64,000 nucleotides of DNA, taken from the NCBI GenBank assembly GCA_964427845.1, contig CAYRVP010000003.1, forward strand, positions 195 through 64,194, read 5' to 3'. Source of the DNA: an uncultured Caldilineaceae bacterium (lineage in GTDB: Bacteria > Chloroflexota > Anaerolineae > Caldilineales > Caldilineaceae). The notes under the pieces were generated by a model, which saw nothing but the letters and a program-made list of their open reading frames with translations, did not search any database and was not told the DNA's origin. How positions within the stretch are numbered: position 1 is the stretch's first letter; the number at the start of each line of letters is the position of its first letter. Made by a program: the position numbers and the translations under genes. Shown one piece after another: positions 1,001 to 20,661 of this stretch.

Positions 1001-1720
1001 TCATTCACCCGGCGCATCGATTTCCAGTTCGGGATTGCGCGGCCCCTCGACCCACACCTGCCCGTCGCTCCAGTTCTCCTGCTTCCAGATTGGCGTTACT
1101 GCCTTGAGGCGCTCGATGGCGTACTGGCATGCCTCAAAGCAACCGTCGCCGCGGTGCGGCGTCGCCACAGCAATCAGTACGCTCGGTTCGCCCACTTCCA
1201 GCCGCCCCGTGCGGTGCAGAATGCTCACGGCGCGCACCAGCGGCCAGCGCGCCTGAATCTCGTCGCCAATGGCCGCCATCGAGCGCTCGGCCATTTCGGC
1301 GTAGGCCTCATACTCGAGGAAGTCGGTGCCGCGCAGGCCGCTCTCCGTGGCCGTCTCTCCACGCACCATGCCTGCAAAAGTCGTAATGGCCCCACAGTCC
1401 GGCCGATTCACGCGTGCCGCAATGTCATCCAGCGAGAGGGGCGCTTCGGACAATGCAAAGAGCTTGCGCGGCTCGGCGCCACCTGAAACCGGTGGAAAGA
1501 TGCCCACCGTGTCGCCGTCGTGAAGCGGCCAGTCGCCCTTGGCATACTCTTCGTTCACCGCCGCATAGAAGGTGCGCTTGTGCAGTTCCAGTTCCGGTTG
1601 CTCGGCGTCTACAGCCGCCACCAGATCACGCAACGTTGCACTCTCACCCAGGCTGAAGGAGCGCTCTCTCCAGCCCGCCTGCTGGCGCAGCGTGGCAAAC
1701 AACCGCACAGATACATTCAT
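1001..1720 (-). CDS. Fused MoaD-MoaE molybdopterin synthase (small sulfur-carrier subunit plus catalytic subunit)
   Basis: N-terminal 81 aa is MoaD/ThiS-like and ends in IFPPVSGG. The rest is MoaE-like ([24 protein letters not shown]). The ATGA start overlaps the moaC stop. Confidence 0.85.
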
Positions 1721-2199
1721 GCCTCACTCCTCTGCCACGCGCCCGACTTGCCCCCCTGCTTTTCCAGGAGGCAAATTTCGCCTATCACCATGCTTTTCTC
1801 AATCGCCTTGGCCATATCGTAAATGGTGAGCGCGGCCACGCTTACAGCGGTCAGCGCCTCCATTTCCACGCCCGTCTGCCCCTGGCAGCGCACCGTCGCG
1901 GTAATCACCACACGGCTCTGCGCTTCGTCAATCGCGAACTCCACCGCCACTTTGGTGAGCAGCAGCGTGTGGCAGAGCGGAATCAGGTCGGGCGTGCGCT
2001 TGGCAGCCATGATGCCGGCAATGCGCGCGGCAGCAAGGACGTCGCCCTTGGGCACGGCGCCATCACGTATGGCAGCGAGGGTGGCGGGCAGCATGTGCAC
2101 CTCGCCACGCGCCACGGCCGTGCGTGTGGTCTCCGCCTTCTCGCTCACGTCCACCATGGTGGCGTGGCCTTGTTCATCGAGGTGGGTCAGGTTCGACAT
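1717..2199 (-). CDS. moaC: Cyclic pyranopterin monophosphate synthase MoaC
   Basis: [21 protein letters not shown]..., [31 protein letters not shown]. Start set at the ATG at 2199, because the longer ORF to 2301 would translate the repeat element. Confidence 0.85.
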
Positions 2200-2214
2200 G
2201 ACGAGTCCGTATTG

Positions 2215-2355
2215 TTGGCTGGTGGACTGGTTGAGTGGTAACTGGTAATTGATGACTGATAATTGATGACTGATAATCGCCACGTCGCGTGACGCTGCCA
2301 TACATCAATTACCAATTATCAGTCATCAATTTTCAGTTCACCCAGTCAGCCAGTA
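2215..2355. repeat. AT-rich imperfect palindrome built from tandem heptads (core TCART / AYTGA)
   Basis: Left arm units are GACTGGT, AACTGGT, AATTGAT, GACTGAT. The right arm is their complement. An 18-bp perfect helix pairs 2247..2264 with 2314..2331. Fills the moeA-moaC intergenic gap. Confidence 0.8.
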
Positions 2356-2364
2356 CCTTGCTCA

Positions 2365-3618
2365 TTAGTGCTCAAGCATCAACGCCCCCACGACGCTCCC
2401 CGCCGCCAATTCGCCCTCAGCCTGGGGCAATTCGAGCAGCGCATTGGCCCCGTGCATGCTCAACAGCCGGCTGCTGGCCTGGCTGCCGGTGCTGGTGGCC
2501 AGCCACCCGCCCGCGCCGCCGTTCAGCGTGTTCACCCACGATAGGTGCGCGCGATGGTACTCGGGCCGCATGGGGTCCAGACGAAGCGGCTCAGCAAGCA
2601 CGGCCTGGACGCGCGGCAGAGTGGGCCGCGCCCAGCCTGCCATGCGCCGCAGCGCGGGCAACGCCAGCAAGTAGAAGGTCACCAGGCTGCTGACAGGATT
2701 GCCGGGCAGGCCGAAGAGCAGGCGCGTTCGTTGTCCCTCGCCGCCGGGCAGCGTGGCAAAAGTGCAGGGTTTGCCGGGTTTCATGTTCAAGCGCCCAAAG
2801 TGCACTGTGCCCGCCGCGGCCGCAAGTTTCTTGATCAGGTCCAGTTCGCCCATGCTCACGCCGCCGCTGGTCAAGATGAATTCGCACGTGGCCAGCGCAC
2901 CGGCGAGCACCTCGCGCAACGCGGTCTCATTATCGGGGGCAATGCCCAGATCCACCACCTCGCCACCCGCCCAGGCCACAGCGGCACGCAGCGTCGGCCC
3001 GTTGCTGTCATAGATGTGTCCCGGCCCAAGCGGCGCGCCGGCGGGCGTCAGTTCGTCACCGGTGGAGAGGACGCCGACACGCGGTCTGGGATAGACGAGG
3101 ACTTCGGTGACGCCCACGGTGGCAATCAGCCCGAGTTCGGCGGGGCCCAGCCGCTCGCCTGCCGCCAGCACCTGTGCGCCGGCGGCAATGTCGTAGCCTA
3201 CGCGCCGCACATCTTCACCGCTGCGCACAGCGCGCAGGATTTCCACGGCGCCACCTTCAACCCGGCGTGTGTCCTCAACCTGCACCACGGCATCGGCGCC
3301 GGGCGGCAGCGGCGCGCCGGTTGTAATGTAGGCAACCTGACCCGCACCCAGCTCGAAGTCGGCCATGCTGCCTGCCGCGACTGCGCCGGCGATGGGATAG
3401 ATGCCCGGTCCGTCGGCTGCCACAACGGCGTAGCCATCCTTCACCGAGGCGGCAAAGGGTGGCAGCGGCGCGGCCGCAATCACAGCCTCGGCCAGAACGA
3501 GCCCCAGCGCAGCGTTTGCGGGGAGCGCGCGCGGCGGCAGCGGCTGCGCCTCGCGCAGCACAATCTCCAAGGCATGTGAGACCGGCAACATCGGGTAGTC
3601 GGACGAGAGCATGGTCAT
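2365..3618 (-). CDS. moeA: Molybdopterin molybdenumtransferase MoeA
   Basis: 417-aa ORF with SVKDGYAV, TGAPLPPGADAVV, LSTGDEL and TSGGVSMGE motifs typical of MoeA/gephyrin E domain. Confidence 0.85.
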   Translation of the reverse strand: MTMLSSDYPMLPVSHALEIVLREAQPLPPRALPANAALGLVLAEAVIAAAPLPPFAASVKDGYAVVAADGPGIYPIAGAVAAGSMADFELGAGQVAYITTGAPLPPGADAVVQVEDTRRVEGGAVEILRAVRSGEDVRRVGYDIAAGAQVLAAGERLGPAELGLIATVGVTEVLVYPRPRVGVLSTGDELTPAGAPLGPGHIYDSNGPTLRAAVAWAGGEVVDLGIAPDNETALREVLAGALATCEFILTSGGVSMGELDLIKKLAAAAGTVHFGRLNMKPGKPCTFATLPGGEGQRTRLLFGLPGNPVSSLVTFYLLALPALRRMAGWARPTLPRVQAVLAEPLRLDPMRPEYHRAHLSWVNTLNGGAGGWLATSTGSQASSRLLSMHGANALLELPQAEGELAAGSVVGALMLEH

Positions 3619-5503: not shown

Positions 5504-7531
5504 ATGTTCTCACGCTTCAAACCCCAATCGCCCGCCGCCGATAGCGCCGGTGGCCGCTTTGAATGGCTCGAACTGCCAGACAGCGAGCCCGAGCGCACAT
5601 CCAGCAAGAAGGCAATTCGCACTGAGGCCGCACTGGGCAAACGTTGCCCCGACTGCAGTTGGCTCGATGACGAAACCGCGACGCGCTGTTTTCGCTGTGG
5701 CTACCGCTACAACGTGGACCAGGCCATGACTTCGCGCTTCAGCGACATGGGCATTGTCCTGCCGCCGCGCGTCATCGAAGCGCCGCAGAATCTGGAAAAC
5801 TTCTTTCGCATCAATGGGCGCATCCGCCCCGCGGAGCCGCTCGACGTCTACCAGTTGCGCTTGCAGGCGGAGGCCCTGCGCTTGAGCCGCGGCTTCGACC
5901 AGCTCCTCTGCCTCGATGAATTGGCCGTCGAACACTACGAGCACCAGATTGACGCCGCGCTGCGCGCCCTGCGCGATATGCGCGGGCGCGCCCTCCTCGC
6001 CGACGAAGTGGGGCTCGGCAAGACAATTGAGGCCGGCATCGTCATGAAAGAGCTCATCGTGCGCGGGTTGGTGCGCACCGTGCTCGTGCTTACGCCTGCC
6101 TCGCTCACCGAGCAGTGGCGCGAGGAACTCTCCGAGAAGTTCCACGAAGAGTTCACCGTCCTGGACCGCTCGAATGACTGGAAAGCACTGCAGGATGTGG
6201 AGGAAGGGCGCTGGATTGTCAGCCTGGACCGCGCCAAACTCAAGAAGTACGCGGACCCCATCCTGGCACGCGAGTACGACCTGCTCATCGTCGACGAGGC
6301 GCACAAACTCAAGAACCGCAACACGCTGGCGTGGCAATTCGTCAATCAGTTGCGCAAGCGCTACGTGCTCATGCTCACCGCCACGCCCGTACAAAATGAC
6401 CTGCTCGAACTTTACAGTCTGGTGACCATCCTCACGCCCGGCCAGTTGGGCACGGTGCGCGCCTTCCGTCGCCATTTTCTCGTACAATCCGACGTGCGCC
6501 AGCCCAAGAACTCGGGCACGCTGCGCCGCCTGCTCAACGATGTGATGATCCGCAACCGGCGCAGCAAGGTGGACATCACCTTCCCGCGCCGCCGCGCCGC
6601 CATTGTCCACCTGGACCTGAGCGAGCGCGAGTGGGAGCTCTACGCCGACGTCACCGACTACATTCGCCGCCGCTTTCGCGATGTGGACAGCAACAAGTCG
6701 CTACGCCTTACGTTGATTACGCTGCAAAAGGAGCTTTCCAGCAGCCCGCAGGCGCTGGCTTCCACCCTGCGCAAGATGACCGCCGACCGTGAGCATGGCG
6801 ACAGCGTGCGCGCCGAGCTGCAGCGCTTCCTTGCCCTGGCCGAGTCCATCGACACCGGGCGCAAATTGCTGGCCGTGCGCGACATCCTGATGACCTATCC
6901 CGGCAAGTTCCTGATATTCACCGAGTATCGCGAAACCCTGGAGGCGATTCTCGACCACCTGCGTGGCTGGGAGATTTCCTGCGTGGGTTTCCACGGTGGG
7001 CTCAGCATCCACCAGAAGGAAGCTGCCGTTGCTGCCTTCCGCGGCGATGTGGATGCCGAGGCAGGCGAGGATGACGACGAACCGGGCGTGCGTGTGATGG
7101 TAAGCACGGAGAGCGGCGCCGAAGGGCGCAATCTCCAGTTCTGCCATCAGCTCATCAACTATGATTTGCCCTGGAACCCCATGCGTGTGGAGCAGCGCAT
7201 CGGCCGCCTGCACCGCCTCGGGCAGGTGCATGAGGTGACCATCTACAACCTCTCCTGCAACGAGACCATCGAAGCGCACGTCATTGATCTGCTCGCCCGC
7301 AAGATTCGCATGTTTGAGCTCGTCATCGGTGAACTCGACCTGATCCTGGGCAGCATTGAGGGCGACAAGTCATTCGAGGATTTGCTGCGCGAGGCGTGGG
7401 AGACCGCCACCAGCGAGGCGGACCTGCGCAGACGCGTCGAAGATCTGGGTGACCTGCTCAGCCGCGCGCGTGAGCGCTACGATACCGTGCGCTCCAACAA
7501 CGAGCGGCTCGACTCGGCGCTCGAATCATAG
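5504..7531 (+). CDS. SNF2-family helicase/translocase (RapA/HepA-like) with N-terminal zinc ribbon
   Basis: CPDC...CFRCG ribbon, helicase motif I LADEVGLGKT, motif II LLIVDEAHKLKN, TATPVQN. The C-terminal helicase lobe has GAEGRNLQ and QRIGRLHRLGQ. Confidence 0.85.
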   Translation: MFSRFKPQSPAADSAGGRFEWLELPDSEPERTSSKKAIRTEAALGKRCPDCSWLDDETATRCFRCGYRYNVDQAMTSRFSDMGIVLPPRVIEAPQNLENFFRINGRIRPAEPLDVYQLRLQAEALRLSRGFDQLLCLDELAVEHYEHQIDAALRALRDMRGRALLADEVGLGKTIEAGIVMKELIVRGLVRTVLVLTPASLTEQWREELSEKFHEEFTVLDRSNDWKALQDVEEGRWIVSLDRAKLKKYADPILAREYDLLIVDEAHKLKNRNTLAWQFVNQLRKRYVLMLTATPVQNDLLELYSLVTILTPGQLGTVRAFRRHFLVQSDVRQPKNSGTLRRLLNDVMIRNRRSKVDITFPRRRAAIVHLDLSEREWELYADVTDYIRRRFRDVDSNKSLRLTLITLQKELSSSPQALASTLRKMTADREHGDSVRAELQRFLALAESIDTGRKLLAVRDILMTYPGKFLIFTEYRETLEAILDHLRGWEISCVGFHGGLSIHQKEAAVAAFRGDVDAEAGEDDDEPGVRVMVSTESGAEGRNLQFCHQLINYDLPWNPMRVEQRIGRLHRLGQVHEVTIYNLSCNETIEAHVIDLLARKIRMFELVIGELDLILGSIEGDKSFEDLLREAWETATSEADLRRRVEDLGDLLSRARERYDTVRSNNERLDSALES

Positions 7532-7639: not shown

Positions 7640-8314
7640 ATGAGCGAAATCAGCGATACCGATCTGCGCGCCCGCCACTTCATCATCACCGAGCTGGCCG
7701 AAACGGGCCGCGCACCCATGCTCGAAGATGTCGCCATCGAGTTGGGCCTGCGCATGGATGCGCTGCGCGCCACGCTGCAGCGGCTGCATGATGCACACCT
7801 CCTCGTGCTGAGCGGCGACGGCACGCTGTTGATGATCCACCCCTTCTCGAATGTGCCTACGGGCTTCCGCGTCACCAGCGGAGGCACGGGTTATGACGCT
7901 AACTGCGCGTGGGATGCACTGGGCATTCTGGCCGCGCTGCGGCGGGACGGCGTCGCCTCGGCACAGGTGCCCGGTGAGCAGGGCAAGTTCCGCTGCCAGG
8001 TGCGCGACGGGCAGCTTGAGGCAGAGGAAGCCGTTGTGCACTTCCCGTTGCCGCTGCGCCAATGGTACGACGATATTGTTTACACCTGAGCGAACATCCT
8101 GCTCTTCCGGTCGGAAGAGGCTGCAAGTGCATGGTGCGCGGCGCGCGGAATGGCGCAGGGCGCGGTGCTGCCGCTGACCCAGGTGTGGGCGCTGGCGCAG
8201 GCATGGTATGGCAGCCGCCTGGACGCCGGCTATAGCGGCCGGTCGGCCGGCGATGTCGAGTCCATCCTCGCAGGCGTGGGCCTCAATGGCCCCTTCTGGC
8301 GCTTCGCCTCCTAA
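7640..8314 (+). CDS. MerB-like (organomercurial/alkylmercury lyase family) protein with in-frame TGA at codon 150; candidate selenoprotein (alternative: nonsense pseudogene)
   Basis: The 225-codon frame is interrupted only by TGA at 8087..8089. NCAWDAL matches the MerB C96-x-x-D99 motif. The downstream in-frame ANILLFRSEEAASAW...AVLPLTQVWALAQAW matches MerB CHVHFFASVPTAEDW...AIVSVHEAFGLGQEF. The TGA aligns with MerB Cys159. Confidence 0.7.
8102..8119 (+). promoter_or_regulatory. SECIS-like hairpin CUCUUCC-GGUC-GGAAGAG, 12 nt downstream of the in-frame UGA
   Basis: Perfect 7-bp stem with a GGUC tetraloop. Loop sequence and spacing resemble the apical part of the E. coli fdhF SECIS. Confidence 0.5.
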
Positions 8315-8483
8315 CGACAATAAGCCTCGACGCAAAGGCGCAGAAACGCAAAGGAGCGTAAAGAAAAGCAGGGACAAGGAAAAGCACCAAGTCAATGACC
8401 TGGTTATTCCTTGTCCCTGCTTTTCTTTGCGCTCCTTTGCGTTTCTGCGCCTTTGCGTCGAGGCTTGTTGTCGTTAGGAGGCG
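8305..8483. repeat. 179-bp palindrome (77-nt arms, 25-nt loop) spanning stop to stop between convergent genes
   Basis: Arms 8305..8381 and 8407..8483 differ at 2 positions (both T/C, G:U-compatible). Both arms contain GCC TCC TAA, so each flanking gene ends in Ala-Ser-stop encoded by the palindrome. Confidence 0.9.
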
Positions 8484-9265
8484 CCCACCATCAGGCTCAC
8501 CAGTTCGTCACCGTTGGTGTCCCCGGCCATCAGGTCACCCACCTTCTGGCCGCGCCGCATGACGATGATGCGGTCGGCCACCGCAAACACATCCTGCATG
8601 TTGTGGCTAATGATGATCACCGGCACACCCTGTTCGCGCAGCGTCAGCACCAGCTCCTGCACCTTGCGCTGCTCGGGCACACCCAGCGCGGCCGTCGGCT
8701 CGTCCATAATCACAAGTTGCGCGTTCCAGTAAACGGCGCGTGCAATTGCCACCGCCTGCCGCTGGCCGCCCGACATCTGGCGAATCGGGCGCTGCAAGTT
8801 GGGGATGACGATGTCCAGGCGATCGAGCACCTTGAGCGACTCGTCATTCATGCGCTTGCGGTCGACCTGGTTGAAAATCCCCAGATATTTGCGCATGGGC
8901 TCGCGGCCCAGGAAGATGTTGACTGTTGCATCCAGGTTCTCGCACAACGCGAGGTCCTGGTAAATCGTCTCGATGCCCAGTTCGCGCGCCTCCATGGGCG
9001 AGGCCATGGTGATCTCGCGCCCGCTCAGGAAAATCTTGCCATCGTCAGGTTTGTAGACGCCCGAAATCATCTTGATCAGCGTTGACTTGCCGGCGCCGTT
9101 GTCACCAACCAGCCCAAGCACCTCGCCGCGATACATGTCAAAACTTACGTCATCCACGGCAACCAGGCCGCCAAAGCGTTTGACCAGGTGCTCGGCATGT
9201 AGAATCATCTCGCCCCTGTGCTGAGGCGTCACGCGTGTGGAATCATCAATGCGTACGTCACTCAT
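8474..9265 (-). CDS. Sugar ABC transporter ATP-binding protein (single NBD)
   Basis: Walker A GDNGAGKST, signature MSGGQRQ, Walker B LVIMDEPT. GGGAGG lies 6 nt before the ATG. Confidence 0.85.
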   Translation of the reverse strand: MSDVRIDDSTRVTPQHRGEMILHAEHLVKRFGGLVAVDDVSFDMYRGEVLGLVGDNGAGKSTLIKMISGVYKPDDGKIFLSGREITMASPMEARELGIETIYQDLALCENLDATVNIFLGREPMRKYLGIFNQVDRKRMNDESLKVLDRLDIVIPNLQRPIRQMSGGQRQAVAIARAVYWNAQLVIMDEPTAALGVPEQRKVQELVLTLREQGVPVIIISHNMQDVFAVADRIIVMRRGQKVGDLMAGDTNGDELVSLMVGAS

Positions 9266-9278
9266 ATGCGCCTCCCGG

Positions 9279-10367
9279 CTAGCGAGCCAGCTTCTCGCGC
9301 GCCTGGTCGATCAGGACGGCGACAATGATGACGACACCCACGGAAATGAACTGCCAGTAGGGATCTACACGCGTGATGACGAGACCGTTGTTCAGCACGG
9401 CGATGATCAGCGCGCCGATGAAGGTGCCAATCACGGTGCCCGAGCCGCCAAAGAGGGACGCTCCTCCAATCACCACCGCAGCCACCGTGTCGAGCACCAT
9501 AGACTCGCCAGAGTTCGCCGCGCCATTGGTGAAGCGGACGTTGTAGACAAGCCCCGCCAGCGCCGCCATGGTGGCCGACAACATATAGATGAATATGGTT
9601 GTGCGCGCCACAGGGATGCCTGCGCGCAGCGCTGCCTCCTTGTTGCCGCCAATCGCATAGGTGTGCAGACCAAAGCGCGAGCGCGAAAGCACGAGGTGCA
9701 TGATGACAAGCGCAATCACCATCACGATCAACACATAGGGCAGAATATTGATGACGGCCCGCATCTGCGCCTGCTCCAAGCCTGTAAAGCGCTCGAAGAA
9801 GACGTATCCTTTTTCGGGCAGGTATTGCGCCACGTAGCCGTTGCCCAGTTCACCGATGCCGCGCACACGTACAGGTACAGGCAGCCCGCCCGAAAGCAGG
9901 AAGCCCACGCCGCGCGCAATGCCGAACATGCCCAGCGTGGCAATGAAGGGGGGCACATTCAGCTTGGCAACCAGCAGGCCATTGACCAGACCCGCGCCCC
10001 AGGCGGCCACCAGGCCGACAGCCGAGCCGGCCAGCACAATCACCAACATGGAGGTGCCGGGCGCAAAGTAATTCATGACAATGGCTGACACGACGGAGAC
10101 CATGCCCATGATCCAGCCCGCCGAGAGGTCAATGCCGCCCGAGATAATGACATAGGTCTGACCGATCGCAATGATCGTCAGAATGGACATGTTGGCCAGA
10201 ATGTTCTGGAAATTGGCGAGCGAAAAGAATGCAGTGCCGCCCGTCATGCTGAAGGTAATGATCAGCAGGGCGAGAAAGAGCCAGGCCCATATGGAGCTGA
10301 GCACTTCGAGGAAGGATCGTCTTGAGGCGGGAGGAGCCTCAGTCTGAGTCGTTGCAAGGGTTGCCAT
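9279..10367 (-). CDS. Sugar ABC transporter permease (RbsC/branched-sugar type)
   Basis: Polytopic membrane protein, operonic between the NBD and SBP genes. Start set at ATG 10367 (MATLATTQ...); the ORF is open to 10508. Confidence 0.8.
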   Translation of the reverse strand: MATLATTQTEAPPASRRSFLEVLSSIWAWLFLALLIITFSMTGGTAFFSLANFQNILANMSILTIIAIGQTYVIISGGIDLSAGWIMGMVSVVSAIVMNYFAPGTSMLVIVLAGSAVGLVAAWGAGLVNGLLVAKLNVPPFIATLGMFGIARGVGFLLSGGLPVPVRVRGIGELGNGYVAQYLPEKGYVFFERFTGLEQAQMRAVINILPYVLIVMVIALVIMHLVLSRSRFGLHTYAIGGNKEAALRAGIPVARTTIFIYMLSATMAALAGLVYNVRFTNGAANSGESMVLDTVAAVVIGGASLFGGSGTVIGTFIGALIIAVLNNGLVITRVDPYWQFISVGVVIIVAVLIDQAREKLAR

Positions 10368-10516
10368 GCGTGAGGTTTCCTGGACTTCGGCGAAGCGGTC
10401 GCACGTGCATGCGTCACCGAACAGCGCGCAGCGTGGCCGTATGGATGCGCAGGGCGCGCATGATTTGGAGAAGCGGGTGGGGAGCGATTGTGACCGCTCC
10501 CCACCCATGGACTCAA

Positions 10517-11566
10517 CTACTCACTCTTGTAGATAGCGTTCTGCGAGGCTTCGGTGTCCACGTTGTCACGTGTTATGACCTGATAGCCGGTCGGGTAGCG
10601 CTTCTGGATCTTGTCCATCTCGCCGGCCTTGGCAGCGACGGCGTAGTCGATGCAGGTCTGGCCCATCTCGTAGGGCAACTGGGCGATGACGAGGTCAACC
10701 ACACCGTCGCGCAGGTCCTGAATAGCGGCTTCCGGTGCATCGAAGGCGGCAACCTTCACCACGCCTGAGAGACCGGCATTCTTGACGGCCTGGGCTGCAC
10801 CTTCGGCGCTGAAGAGGTTGGCGCCGAAGACGCCGCCCAGGTCCGGGTGTACCTGAAGAAGGGCTGCGGTCTGCTCGGCGGCTTTGGCGGCGCTGTCTTC
10901 GTTATAGTCGACGCCCACCAGTTCGACTGCGCCACCGGTAGCCTCAACGGCCTCGCGACAACCCTGCTCGCGCTGGTCGGTGGTGCTGATGCCGGGGCGC
11001 ACATTCTGGATGTAAAGCTTGCCCGCACCACCCATGGCCTCGATGATAGCCGTGCAGGCGATCGTGCCGCCTTCAACATTGTTCGAGCCAATGTAGGAGA
11101 GCGGGAACTGGACGTCGCCGGTGGTGTAATCGCCGGCGGTGTCACCAATGAAGGTGTCGACGCTGAAGATGTTGATGCCCGCTTCGGAGGCGGCCTTCAG
11201 CGGCTCGATGAAGGCCTGCTTGTCGGTGGCGGCCACGCAGATCGCATCCGGCTTGGAGGCCACGACGGCATCCAGAATCGGGCGCTGCAGGACGGCATCG
11301 AACTGTGCAGGGCCATCGGCCGTGAAGTCGATATTACCCAACTCGGCGGCCCTGGCGCGCGCGCCGGCTTCCATGGTCACGTAGAAACCGTCACCCTTGA
11401 CGCCATAGACCAACGCGACCTTGACGGGCTCACTTGCGGCCGGGGCGGCTGCGGCAGCGTCTGCCGGGGCAGCGGCGGGCGCAACCGGCGCCACACATGC
11501 CGTGAAGAGCATGGCCAGAACTACGATCAAACCCAATACCGCAATACGCTTCATATCTCGTACCAT
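10517..11566 (-). CDS. Sugar ABC transporter substrate-binding lipoprotein (RbsB-like periplasmic binding fold)
   Basis: Signal peptide with lipobox (LAMLFTAC), Ala/Pro linker, then a type I periplasmic-binding-protein-like sequence. AAGGAG lies 9 nt before the ATG at 11566. Confidence 0.75.
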   Translation of the reverse strand: MVRDMKRIAVLGLIVVLAMLFTACVAPVAPAAAPADAAAAAPAASEPVKVALVYGVKGDGFYVTMEAGARARAAELGNIDFTADGPAQFDAVLQRPILDAVVASKPDAICVAATDKQAFIEPLKAASEAGINIFSVDTFIGDTAGDYTTGDVQFPLSYIGSNNVEGGTIACTAIIEAMGGAGKLYIQNVRPGISTTDQREQGCREAVEATGGAVELVGVDYNEDSAAKAAEQTAALLQVHPDLGGVFGANLFSAEGAAQAVKNAGLSGVVKVAAFDAPEAAIQDLRDGVVDLVIAQLPYEMGQTCIDYAVAAKAGEMDKIQKRYPTGYQVITRDNVDTEASQNAIYKSE

Positions 11567-11712
11567 GAGCTGAATCTCCTTTGACCTGCCGTATGGAATG
11601 ATGGGTTGGAGCTGATAAACAGTGGGTGCTTGCTTCACGCACAGCGCGCACAGATGCACGTCTCCAGAGGGGAGATCCATTTGGTGCAAACGATTGCGCT
11701 CGGTGTACGGGA

Positions 11713-18039: not shown

Positions 18040-20661
18040 ATGAGCGATCCATCGATGCCATCCTACACTGCCGATGCTCAAACCAGCCAAGCCACAGCCT
18101 CCCCTCAGGAGAGCGGCGCACCGTCCCCGGTGCAGGCTGGCCCGCACCCCGCATCAAGCCCTGCGCCGGGGTTGCGCCCCACCGTTGCCTACGTTTCCAG
18201 TGAGTCCGACCCGCACAGCCTGGGCACACGCGTCGTGGAGCCACCTGCCGAAACCAGGCAGGCGGTGCGCGGCAGCCTCTACGCCGTCGTCGAACTGAGC
18301 GGCAGCCCCGCACCGACCGATGTGACCGAGCGGCTGCTGAGTTTGCTGCAGCGCACCTACTACACAGCGCGCGGCAGCCAGTCGGCAGTGCTGAGCGAAG
18401 CTGTGCGCAGTGCTATGGGTGTGGTGCGTGAGCACAACGCACACAACCCCACCGCGCAGCTGCGCGTCTCGCTCAGCTGCGCCACCCTGGTCAACCAGAG
18501 GCTGCTGCTGGCCTGTTGCGGTGCGGCCTTTGCCATGCTGCGCTCGGGAGAGCGCATTGAGCTTTACCCGAACCAGCCCGACAAGGCGCTGCCGGCCAAC
18601 CCCGACGAGATGGACGCGATTGAGGTGCTCAAGTGGGAGATGGCGGCGAACGACGTTGCGTTGCTCTGCGGGCCGGGGTGGAGCGACAGGCTGCCCGTCA
18701 AGACGCTGGCTGCAACTGTCTACTACGTCACGGTCGACACGGTGGAAGACGCCGCCGAAGGGCTGCGCGAACAGGCGGGCGGCTCGGCAGGACCGGGGCT
18801 GCTGCTCGTCATGCAGCCGGCGCTGCCACCGCCGCCGCCTCGTCCGGCAACTCCCCTGACTGCGCCGCGCCGCAACGCACCTGCAGGGCTGACCACGTCG
18901 CTCTCCGCGCCGCCACCCGTAACATCCCCTGCCGCGCCCTTCACGCCGCCGCAGCTCGAAACCGAACTATCAAGCGACATTCCGGCCTTTCTGCGTCGCA
19001 GCGACATGGCCGCCGGCCTCTCACTTGAAGCGCCGTCTGCGCCGCTGGACAGCGACACTGCCACCCACTTTGAGCCGTTTCCCGTACTGGCTATGCAAGG
19101 CGCCGGCGATACGCTGGACGCGGCGCAATTTGGCGAAGGTGCATCCGGCGAGGACGAGGGCGATAAAGCGCCGTCGGCCACCGACCGCATTGTGATTGGT
19201 GCGAAGGAGGGGGCTGACCGTGCACGCTCCTTCTTCCGCCAGATGCTGCCCGAGAAGCGTACGGCCAATCCCGCCGACTTCGAGCTGCTCGAAGACGAAG
19301 AGAGCGCACACGCGCCAGATGTGCCCGCCATGGCCGACGCGACCGGCGCTGCATCTGTGCCGCGCAGCGGTGCTGCGACATCCGTGGCCGCGTCTGCGCA
19401 CCTTTCCTCGACCGCGTATGTCGGCGACCTAGCCCCCTTCGAACCGCCTGCGCCCGCTACGGGCAGCCGCGCGCGCCTCTTCATCACATTGGCAATCCTC
19501 GTGGCGCTGCTCGTCCCGGTCACCGTCGCCGCGTACAACTGGCGCATCGGCGCGATGAATCGCGAAGAGGCCGAGATGCTCGTTTCGCTGGCGCAGGCGC
19601 GCATCCTCAACGCACAGGACTCGCTCAACACCAACGATATGCGTAGCGCGCTCGATCTGGCGAGTGAAGCGCAGGACTACATCGACCGCTCGATCGAGCT
19701 CATCGGCCCCACCGACGCATCCAACGATCTGGGCGGCAAGGTGCGCTCCATCGAGCAGGAAGCCGCCAACACCAGACTGCTTTACGGCCTTGCATCGCCC
19801 CTCATCGTTTTCCCCGAGGGCGCTGCGCCGACACGCCTGCTGGTTGTGGATCAGGACATCTACGTGCTTGATCCCGGCCGCGGCCTCGTGGAGCGCTATC
19901 GCGTAGATGATTCGCAGGAGCAACTGGAGACCCCCGATGGCGTGCCCGTGCTGACCACCGGCCAGTCGCTCGGTGGTGCGATCGTGGGCGAGCTCATCGA
20001 CATGGCCTGGCAGCCGGTGGTGCCCGGCTATGATGACAAGGCCACGCTCCTCGTCCTTGACTCCAACAACCAGATCTACCGTTACGACCCAGTCGTGGAA
20101 GGCCCGTCGCGACTGGACATGGGTGGCGCCGCGGACTTCAAGTCCATCCGCCAGTTGGAGACTTTTGGCCGCCGCCTCTACCTGGCGGATGCCGGGCGCG
20201 GCCAGGTGCTGCGTTACCCCGAGGGTCTCTACGGCGAGGAACCGACCGACTGGTTCGCCGCGCCGGTCAACCTGGATGACATGAAGACCATGCGCATCGA
20301 CGGCGACCTCTGGATCATGCTCAAGAACGGGCAGATTCTGCGCTTCTTTGGCGGTGAGCAGCTCTCCTTCTCGCTTGACAATAGCGTGGGCCTCGTGCGC
20401 GAACCTGTGGATTTCACGATTGGCGACGGCACAAACCCCGACATCTACGTGGCTGACCGCGGCGGCGAACGCGTGTGGGTCTTCGATCGCGACGGCCGCT
20501 ACATCAAGCAGTTTGCTGCGCCCGAGGGCAACCCGCTGCGCGGCCTCAGCGCCATCGGCATTGAGGACGTGACGGACTCTCTCTACCTCATGACCCCGAC
20601 TGCGCTCTACAAGCACACACTGCCTCAGGACGACGCGCCGGAAACAACCACCACCGACTAA
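18040..20661 (+). CDS. Large membrane protein: N-terminal globular domain (degenerate PP2C-like?), Pro/Ala-rich linker, one TM helix, C-terminal beta-propeller-like repeats
   Basis: TM segment LFITLAILVALLVPVTVAAY. The C-terminal half has repeated IYVLD..G.V.RY / LYLAD.GRGQVLRY / IYVADRGGERVWVF blades. The N-terminal domain lacks the PP2C metal-binding Asp residues. Confidence 0.55.
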   Translation: MSDPSMPSYTADAQTSQATASPQESGAPSPVQAGPHPASSPAPGLRPTVAYVSSESDPHSLGTRVVEPPAETRQAVRGSLYAVVELSGSPAPTDVTERLLSLLQRTYYTARGSQSAVLSEAVRSAMGVVREHNAHNPTAQLRVSLSCATLVNQRLLLACCGAAFAMLRSGERIELYPNQPDKALPANPDEMDAIEVLKWEMAANDVALLCGPGWSDRLPVKTLAATVYYVTVDTVEDAAEGLREQAGGSAGPGLLLVMQPALPPPPPRPATPLTAPRRNAPAGLTTSLSAPPPVTSPAAPFTPPQLETELSSDIPAFLRRSDMAAGLSLEAPSAPLDSDTATHFEPFPVLAMQGAGDTLDAAQFGEGASGEDEGDKAPSATDRIVIGAKEGADRARSFFRQMLPEKRTANPADFELLEDEESAHAPDVPAMADATGAASVPRSGAATSVAASAHLSSTAYVGDLAPFEPPAPATGSRARLFITLAILVALLVPVTVAAYNWRIGAMNREEAEMLVSLAQARILNAQDSLNTNDMRSALDLASEAQDYIDRSIELIGPTDASNDLGGKVRSIEQEAANTRLLYGLASPLIVFPEGAAPTRLLVVDQDIYVLDPGRGLVERYRVDDSQEQLETPDGVPVLTTGQSLGGAIVGELIDMAWQPVVPGYDDKATLLVLDSNNQIYRYDPVVEGPSRLDMGGAADFKSIRQLETFGRRLYLADAGRGQVLRYPEGLYGEEPTDWFAAPVNLDDMKTMRIDGDLWIMLKNGQILRFFGGEQLSFSLDNSVGLVREPVDFTIGDGTNPDIYVADRGGERVWVFDRDGRYIKQFAAPEGNPLRGLSAIGIEDVTDSLYLMTPTALYKHTLPQDDAPETTTTD

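Follow-up and report, generated by a model that had tools for sequence, protein, structure and literature searches.

A conserved in-frame UGA in a MerB-like gene of Chloroflexota and other bacteria suggests a further clade of MerB-type selenoproteins

The organomercurial lyase MerB (EC 4.99.1.2; PDB 3F0O/3F0P) and MerB2 of Bacillus megaterium (5C17) share one fold and the same active-site positions, which in MerB are occupied by Cys96 and Asp99, the metal ligand and the proton donor, and by a third ligand, Cys159. A MerB-like protein carrying selenocysteine (Sec, U) at the last of these positions has already been described: SaoL (NF040728), the 'selenocysteine-assisted organometallic lyase' of Clostridioides difficile and other anaerobes, whose residues Cys99, Asp102 and Sec162 correspond to Cys96, Asp99 and Cys159 of MerB (Haft & Gwadz, bioRxiv 10.1101/2022.07.06.499078). 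SaoL was found truncated at a CU dipeptide and belongs to a nine-gene SAO locus, including SaoB, SaoP, SaoT, SaoC and SaoE, that occurs in about 50 strictly anaerobic species (bioRxiv 10.1101/2022.07.06.499078). Here we analyse a gene at positions 7640–8314 on the plus strand of a 64,000-nucleotide stretch of DNA (the window, counted in 1-based positions) from contig CAYRVP010000003.1 of an uncultured Caldilineaceae bacterium (GCA_964427845.1). Comparison with its relatives makes it highly probable that this gene encodes a 224-residue protein of the MerB fold with the active site Cys89/Asp92/Sec150, the last residue being specified by a recoded UGA, whose role would by analogy with MerB be the cleavage of organometals.

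The reading frame extends from ATG at 7640 to TAA at 8312–8314 and comprises 224 codons read as sense, among them a single in-frame TGA at 8087–8089, with no frameshift. An earlier sequence-only reading of this DNA had described one frame interrupted by the TGA alone, and every coordinate it gave proved exact. The features discussed below are the following.

7640–8314, plus strand: read-through coding sequence of the putative MerB-like selenoprotein, 224 amino acids (aa) with U at residue 150.
7904–7915, plus strand: codons of Cys89-Ala-Trp-Asp92, counterparts of the metal ligand Cys96 and the proton donor Asp99 of MerB by profile alignment.
8087–8089, plus strand: in-frame UGA, very likely read as Sec (U150), counterpart of MerB Cys159 and SaoL Sec162 by conservation and profile alignment.
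8090–8311, plus strand: 74 C-terminal codons 3' of the UGA that complete the MerB fold and are absent from the annotated products, as judged by residue conservation and alignment.
8102–8119, plus strand: SECIS-like hairpin (SECIS, selenocysteine insertion sequence) with the stem CTCTTCC (8102–8108)/GGAAGAG (8113–8119) and the loop GGUC (8109–8112).

Gene calling with genetic code 11 splits this frame into a 149-aa open reading frame (ORF) and a remainder. Public gene calls end at 8089 and give a 149-aa product, and one such truncation, P0003, is 100% identical to the product from the window. In NCBI, ENA and JGI records, members of the family are listed as unnamed or 'hypothetical' proteins of 149 aa.

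A scan of one genome per species (GTDB) revealed at least 545 relatives, of which the best 80 were compared. All 80, at 35–87% identity, carry TGA at query column 150, and in each of them the frame holds this one in-frame stop, runs on to about residue 220 and is conserved downstream of it. The uniformity is not an artefact of selection, as this codon formed no part of the retrieval patterns and tblastn would have given a Cys codon the higher score. The nearest of the 80 is a Caldilineaceae genome (L001, 87% identity). Carriers within the Chloroflexota further comprise Anaerolineales, Thermomicrobiales, Phototrophicaceae, Ktedonobacterales and Thermoflexus, while those beyond this phylum belong to Gemmatimonadota, Archangium (Myxococcota), NC10, Phycisphaerae (Planctomycetota), Eisenbacteria and Vicinamibacterales (Acidobacteriota). 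Among 28 diverse full-length sequences, F156, W165, L185, W189, L215 and W220 are invariant 3' of the TGA and R157, G174, Y190, R193 and F219 nearly so, and the residue directly before the UGA is Thr in 81 of 81 sequences, the window included. The sequence-only reading had left it to homologues to decide whether the TGA recurs at the same column or whether orthologues simply terminate there ahead of an unconserved frame; the 80 species representatives settle this in favour of a shared TGA followed by a conserved protein. A pseudogene, a sequencing error and natural termination were considered as well and are ruled out by the conservation of the TGA in 80 of 80 relatives.

A homologue search at the protein level returned 53 proteins, most of them 131–160 aa long and all of those stopping at one column after the motif DDIV[FY]T, together with a few full-length proteins that have C or W at the TGA column. 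When the natural Cys form P0001 was used as query against a library of 1.84 billion cluster representatives, 1729 proteins matched at E ≤ 1e-3. The best 150 of these contain about 53 (about one third) Sec forms, which terminate at residue 149 and possess Cys89 and Asp92, next to 29 full-length proteins with a C-D-C active site, 41 of a C-C-C variant and 5 with W at the column. The C-C-C proteins form a sister group in which Cys replaces the equivalent of Asp99 (motif NCAWCSLG; for example P0056, P0059, P0060 and P0063), and we know of no characterised member.

That the protein belongs to the MerB family, as the sequence-only reading had held, follows from a match to the Pfam family MerB (PF03243) of 87 bits against a cutoff of 27, which covers model positions 1–126 of 126 and residues 69–191 and spans the TGA when the stop is replaced by C. 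For a more sensitive comparison, we built a profile from 28 full-length members, consisting of read-through translations with U written as C and of natural Cys forms, and searched it against the PDB sequences, where it matches MerB2 (5c17, E = 1e-21) and MerB (3f2g, E = 3e-11). The profile places ANCAWD over YAWCALD of MerB, so that Cys89 (TGC, 7904–7906) corresponds to Cys96 and Asp92 (GAT, 7913–7915) to Asp99, and sets the U column over the Cys of 'SFC' in MerB (Cys159) and of 'GGTC' in MerB2; the region 3' of the UGA aligns with the C-terminus of both proteins. The likeness of N-C-A-W-D to Cys96-x-x-Asp99 and the placement of the TGA at Cys159, both previously made by eye, are upheld by this alignment. 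Conservation across the family is at least 90% for both Cys89 and Asp92, and C and D occupy these positions in 53 of 53 truncated, Sec-type representatives. The catalytic triad is thus present as Cys89, Asp92 and, at the third position, a UGA whose predicted Sec would be a conservative replacement of Cys.

The structure prediction agrees with this assignment. An AlphaFold2 model of P0001, which is 78% identical to the window protein, reached a predicted local distance difference test (pLDDT) score of 95.8 and a predicted template modelling (pTM) score of 0.92, and its only significant Foldseek matches in the PDB were MerB2 and MerB (probability 1.0, E 1e-9 to 2e-6, TM 0.6–0.71), while its N-terminal 60 residues matched the winged-helix metal regulators MntR/DtxR. 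MerB2 is the nearest solved relative and shares with the family the T-C context of the third ligand and an FxSxE-like segment after it, but has Ser where the window family and MerB have Asp. Both MerB and MerB2 use Cys as third ligand where the window family uses a predicted Sec, and identity to them is about 20%. The canonical MerB models NF033555 and PRK13239 score the window protein at 20.6 bits against 200 and at 26.6 against 193, below their cutoffs, and with the 28 members give best E-values of 7e-15 and 1.4e-20, matches that we take to be well below the equivalog cutoffs. The gene moreover differs from merB in lying outside a mer operon and off a mobile element, without a MerA partner.

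In more distant relatives, the MerB-like domain was also observed in fusions: with a LuxR/GerE DNA-binding domain at the C-terminus, with a GNAT acetyltransferase or a glyoxalase/VOC domain at the N-terminus, and with a PhzF-like domain at the C-terminus. The fusion proteins are P0104, P0113 (with P0108 and P0120 added by eye only), P0060, P0074 and P0131, and they suggest that the MerB fold, beyond mercury resistance, serves in sensing and in the metabolism of small molecules as well.

Twelve nucleotides (nt) after the TGA, the perfect 7-bp stem with GGUC loop that had been reported from the sequence alone is confirmed, its loop beginning 19 nt after the UGA. We assessed its conservation in a gap-free RNA alignment of the 54 nt from the TGA onward in 81 sequences, that is, the 80 loci and the window. 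Five pairs, 8104–8108 with 8113–8117 (columns 18–22 with 27–31), form a conserved core that is paired in 404 of 405 cells (5 pairs × 81 sequences), and two of the core pairs show double changes in which C-G is replaced by U-A, 3 sequences doing so at the first pair and 8 at the second. As the second of these switches alters Glu to Lys, the protein yields to the RNA at this point. The loop reads [G/A]GUC in nearly all 81 sequences. Where the consensus residue is present, codons within the hairpin hardly vary (Ser TCG 79/79, Arg CGG 64/65, Leu CTC 66/69), and synonymous-site entropy amounts to 0.00–0.26 bits there versus 1.4–1.8 at flanking four-fold sites (Ala, Thr, Leu, Val, Arg); Arg codons upstream of the hairpin favour C at the third position.

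The resemblance to the SECIS of Escherichia coli fdhF proposed in the sequence-only reading was checked on the DNA of strain K-12, where the loop proved identical and offset by 1 nt. Counted from the U of the UGA, the GGUC apical tetraloop comprises G22 G23 U24 C25 in fdhF and G23 G24 U25 C26 in the window, which moves the G-U dinucleotide from +23/+24 to +24/+25 in the window family, and both hairpins lie inside the coding sequence just 3' of the UGA. Unlike the fdhF element, the hairpin of the window family is a short perfect helix of 5–7 bp without a bulged U and without a conserved lower stem. The published bacterial SECIS consensus has G at the first or second loop position, and the loop of the window family agrees with it.

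Further evidence comes from homologues in which the UGA is replaced. Cys fills the UGA column in close and distant homologues alike, which answers a question raised by the sequence-only reading: it is found in P0001 (TGC, 78% identity), P0002 (TGT, 70%, syntenic), P0010 and P0015 and in about 80 of the top 150 library representatives. In P0001 the loop is changed to GTTC and the stem is broken, and in P0002 the loop is changed to GCAC, so that the RNA constraint is present only where TGA is present. Taken together, distance, loop, covariation, synonymous constraint and decay in the Cys-codon forms support a hairpin that behaves as a SECIS.

P0002, encoded at 10001–10675 of L083 (ENA ERZ25039483 contig_15787), is the orthologue found in synteny with the window gene and has 70% identity to it. 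Besides the change of U to Cys it has lost Cys89 and Asp92 (ANCAWD to VPSVFE), and the joint loss suggests that the three residues function as a unit. Judged by its sequence, P0002 looks like an orthologue whose activity was lost or whose function changed after loss of Sec.

In P0007, P0009, P0058, P0090, P0114, P0175 and P0200, all public gene calls from metagenomes, the Sec column is occupied by Trp. Trp as a third type of residue at this column was rejected for P0007, whose DNA has TGA translated with code 4, and we assume the same for P0009 and the remaining W forms. Artefacts of this kind are general and can conceal selenoproteins in protein catalogues from metagenomes.

From these data, we propose the following mode of action. 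The UGA at 8087–8089 would not be read as a stop; instead, the hairpin 12 nt downstream would act as a bacterial SECIS and recruit SelB with Sec-tRNA(Sec), leading to insertion of Sec at the site that corresponds to MerB Cys159. On the analogy of MerB, an organometallic substrate would have its metal bound by the selenolate of U150 and the thiolate of Cys89 and its leaving carbon protonated by Asp92, whereby the carbon–metal bond is cleaved. On the comparative evidence, translation of the UGA is almost certain and Sec as the inserted residue very likely; recognition of the hairpin by SelB is our inference. A function as carbon–metal(loid) lyase, which is drawn from the analogy with MerB, is favoured with less assurance. 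Sec has a lower pKa than Cys and is softer, and it would therefore be expected to bind Hg or a similar metal more tightly and at lower concentration, with slower product release. The proposal of the sequence-only reading that the UGA is read as Sec in a MerB-type site is supported by the TGA in 80 of 80 relatives, the SECIS-like hairpin and the Cys homologues.

Several observations weigh against this interpretation. Neither selA, selB, selD nor tRNA-Sec was found in the window and the 80 flanking regions (1.39 Mb in total), searched with ARAGORN and with tblastn using E. coli SelA, SelD and SelB queries. Folded alone, the window hairpin is unremarkable (minimum free energy –10.5 kcal/mol, z = –1.28, 21 of 200 shuffles folding equally well), so that the case for a SECIS rests on the comparison with relatives. 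It lacks the bulged U17 that we take to be a feature of the fdhF SECIS. An Rfam search of 8040–8180 at E ≤ 10 gave no SECIS match and only a chance match to an internal ribosome entry site, with a suitable bacterial SECIS model in Rfam not established. Concerning function, a comparison of conserved neighbourhoods in the 80 loci and the window revealed near the MerB-like gene no MerA or other mer gene to take over Hg(II), no transporter partner and no SAO gene. The LuxR-type fusions indicate that some members may bind or sense rather than catalyse. An Hg–Se bond, finally, should hinder product release in comparison with MerB, which fits poorly with simple mercury detoxification.

The Sec machinery is consequently not linked to the MerB-like gene in the window and the 80 flanking regions. 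The only SelB-like match, in L055, was identified by its sequence as a LepA-type GTPase and rejected, and the only tRNAs of the window according to ARAGORN and Rfam are tRNA-Ala and tRNA-Leu. ARAGORN may overlook a tRNA-Sec of the 8/4 type; for the Chloroflexota, a Sec-decoding trait, such unusual 8/4 tRNA-Sec and large selenoproteomes are published. A further candidate selenoprotein gene was observed in L067, a complete Ktedonobacterales genome (CP126532.1), at 19303–19899 on the minus strand, about 9 kb from the MerB-like gene. It is AhpD/CMD-like, and in its CxxC redox motif the second Cys is replaced by an in-frame TGA (SHCHY-U-LSNH, a CxxU form), followed about 20 nt downstream by the hairpin CCUGC-AGUU-GCAGG. 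Its read-through product matches TIGR01926 over the full length and across the TGA with 92.8 bits against a cutoff of 81.8, and a CMD-like CxxU family is a recognised selenoprotein type in the literature. This second candidate and the published trait of the phylum lend indirect support to the use of Sec in the carrier lineages.

Other explanations differ from ours in the decoding of the UGA. If the TGA were a true stop, the product would have 149 residues, as in every public gene call and in the ORFs of code-11 gene finders, and the frame behind it would be a decaying remnant or a separately translated peptide. We regard this as extremely improbable: a remnant would not have kept its frame open and its protein sequence conserved, with six invariant aromatic or Leu residues, across 80 species of several phyla, and a separate peptide finds no conserved start codon 3' of the TGA. 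The C-terminal part, besides, supplies strands and helices of the MerB fold that follow the third catalytic residue, and the Cys-form homologues are single polypeptides. Translation of the UGA as a residue other than Sec is improbable too, though less so. A SelB-dependent mimic of tRNA-Sec (selC*/tRNA-ReC) could insert Cys, or the hairpin could stimulate near-cognate read-through that yields Trp or Cys. The literature describes tRNA-Cys mimics of tRNA-Sec as possible opal suppressors and counts selC* in genomes with Sec-type hydrogenases, those of Chloroflexota included; Sec-synthesis genes were not found for the genome of the window (within its 64 kb), and Cys is clearly tolerated at the UGA position in homologues. 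Yet a TGY codon would provide Cys without the cost of recoding, and all 80 relatives keep the TGA with its hairpin, whose loop equals the SelB-binding loop of a genuine Sec gene, fdhF; one of the carrier genomes, L067, also has the CxxU-type candidate described above. To our knowledge, selC* has so far been found as an addition to a normal Sec system and not as its replacement.

The function leaves more room for disagreement than the decoding. A MerB-fold selenoprotein might be no carbon–metal lyase at all and instead bind or traffic a soft metal (Hg, Cu, Cd, Ag) or selenium, or act as a sensor, for which we see a minor though appreciable chance. Housekeeping synteny with no mer, SAO or other metal-handling neighbour agrees with such a role, as do the resemblance of the N-terminal 60 residues to MntR/DtxR, the LuxR/GerE fusions, which suggest ligand sensing in some relatives, and the binding of copper by MerB mutants and MerB2. 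Binding alone, however, needs no Asp, and the full triad with its proton-donating Asp is kept in 53 of 53 Sec-type representatives. Sec is usually retained at catalytic rather than purely structural sites, and in P0002 the change from U to C came with the loss of Cys89 and Asp92, as if the three formed one unit. The Sec-containing lyase remains the reading that we prefer.

The window family and SaoL have in common that they belong to PF03243 and place Sec, predicted in our case, at the position of MerB Cys159, an equivalence drawn through MerB and not from a direct alignment with SaoL. They differ in almost every other respect. The SaoL hidden Markov model NF040728 scores the window protein at 28.5 bits against a cutoff of 140, with a best E-value of 2.9e-15 among the 28 members. 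SaoL has the motif C-U, whereas the window family has T-U in 81 of 81 sequences. The saoL gene is part of the nine-gene SAO locus, in contrast to the standalone position of the window family among housekeeping genes. Carriers of SaoL are about 50 strictly anaerobic Firmicutes, spirochaetes and deltaproteobacteria, those of the window family mostly Chloroflexota, joined by Gemmatimonadota and others; and 45 SaoL loci compare with at least 545 species that have a relative of the window family. SaoL is the sole MerB-type entry in a 2022 review, in a 2026 review and, as far as its text shows, in the 2026 BSepDB paper, to the extent that these sources were accessible, and the main texts of the GOS (Global Ocean Sampling) survey, of the 2016 paper on comparative genomics and of deep-Sep make no mention of MerB. 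The sequence-only reading could not say whether a Sec form of the MerB family had been described. A MerB-type lyase with Sec is no new concept, SaoL being published and using the same site, which makes the finding less surprising, but the present clade seems to be a second one, distinct from SaoL by its sequences and apparently undescribed, although an earlier mention is possible.

The window gene is located between an SNF2-family helicase gene (5504–7531, plus strand) and a convergent ABC transporter of the sugar type (8474–11689, minus strand); genes for a subtilase, MoeA and MoaC lie farther upstream. This gene order is kept in L083, the locus of the Cys form P0002. Across the 81 sequences, the most frequent neighbour cluster occurs in at most 23, and recurrent neighbours are housekeeping genes, namely those for HMG-CoA reductase, DnaA, ribosomal protein S2, EF-Ts and an M20 peptidase. 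The gene thus stands alone on the chromosome and is inherited with its neighbours, and it is part of neither a mer nor a SAO operon. Its vertical, housekeeping-like inheritance and the absence of MerA from its surroundings make a classical role in mercury resistance doubtful, and the standalone position implies that the natural substrate may not be an organomercurial.

Some further observations concern the surroundings of the gene. The molybdenum-cofactor genes of the window, moaC (1717–2301, minus strand) and moeA (2365–3618, minus strand), lie 4–6 kb upstream, an arrangement kept in L083 together with moaE/thiS; of the window ORFs that were examined, none was recognised as coding for a molybdoenzyme or a formate dehydrogenase. 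A 77-nt inverted repeat (8305–8381/8407–8483, 97% complementary, 25-nt spacer), unique in the window, fills the space between the MerB-like gene and the convergent gene of the ABC ATPase and overlaps both stop codons; both genes end in Ala-Ser-stop. Long inverted repeats are found at the same place in syntenic relatives, with arms of 70 nt in L001, 67 nt in L003 and 34 nt in L083. The repeat is probably an unusually long bidirectional terminator. A relaxed scan of the window for additional selenoprotein genes found none, and at its coding-signal threshold it missed the known TGA site too.

In a wider interpretation, which we offer tentatively and consider rather doubtful as a whole, the family would constitute a second lineage of MerB-type selenoenzymes that possibly arose independently. 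Passed on vertically as a core chromosomal gene, it would be present in hundreds of Chloroflexota and other bacteria of soil, sludge and sediment, mostly aerobic or facultative ones, and would serve mer-independent cleavage of carbon–metal(loid) bonds, for example the demethylation of trace methylmercury or of a different organometal(loid). Truncated gene calls would hide it from merB-based environmental surveys.

Hundreds of species hold the gene as an unnamed fragment of 149 residues. Were it annotated with read-through, the enzyme would be complete again and the bacterial selenoproteome would gain a large family. As its GGUC loop is the same as that of E. coli fdhF, expression in E. coli with native insertion of Sec may be feasible. 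Two MerB-type lineages with selenium at the same metal-binding position, in the contexts CU and TU, would give a natural comparison that bears on the role of selenium in carbon–metal cleavage and product release. The carriers among Anaerolineae, Caldilineae, Thermomicrobia and Gemmatimonadota are abundant in soils, sediments and wastewater sludge, and if the enzyme indeed demethylates methylmercury or a related compound without a mer operon, these bacteria would possess a demethylation route that surveys have overlooked.

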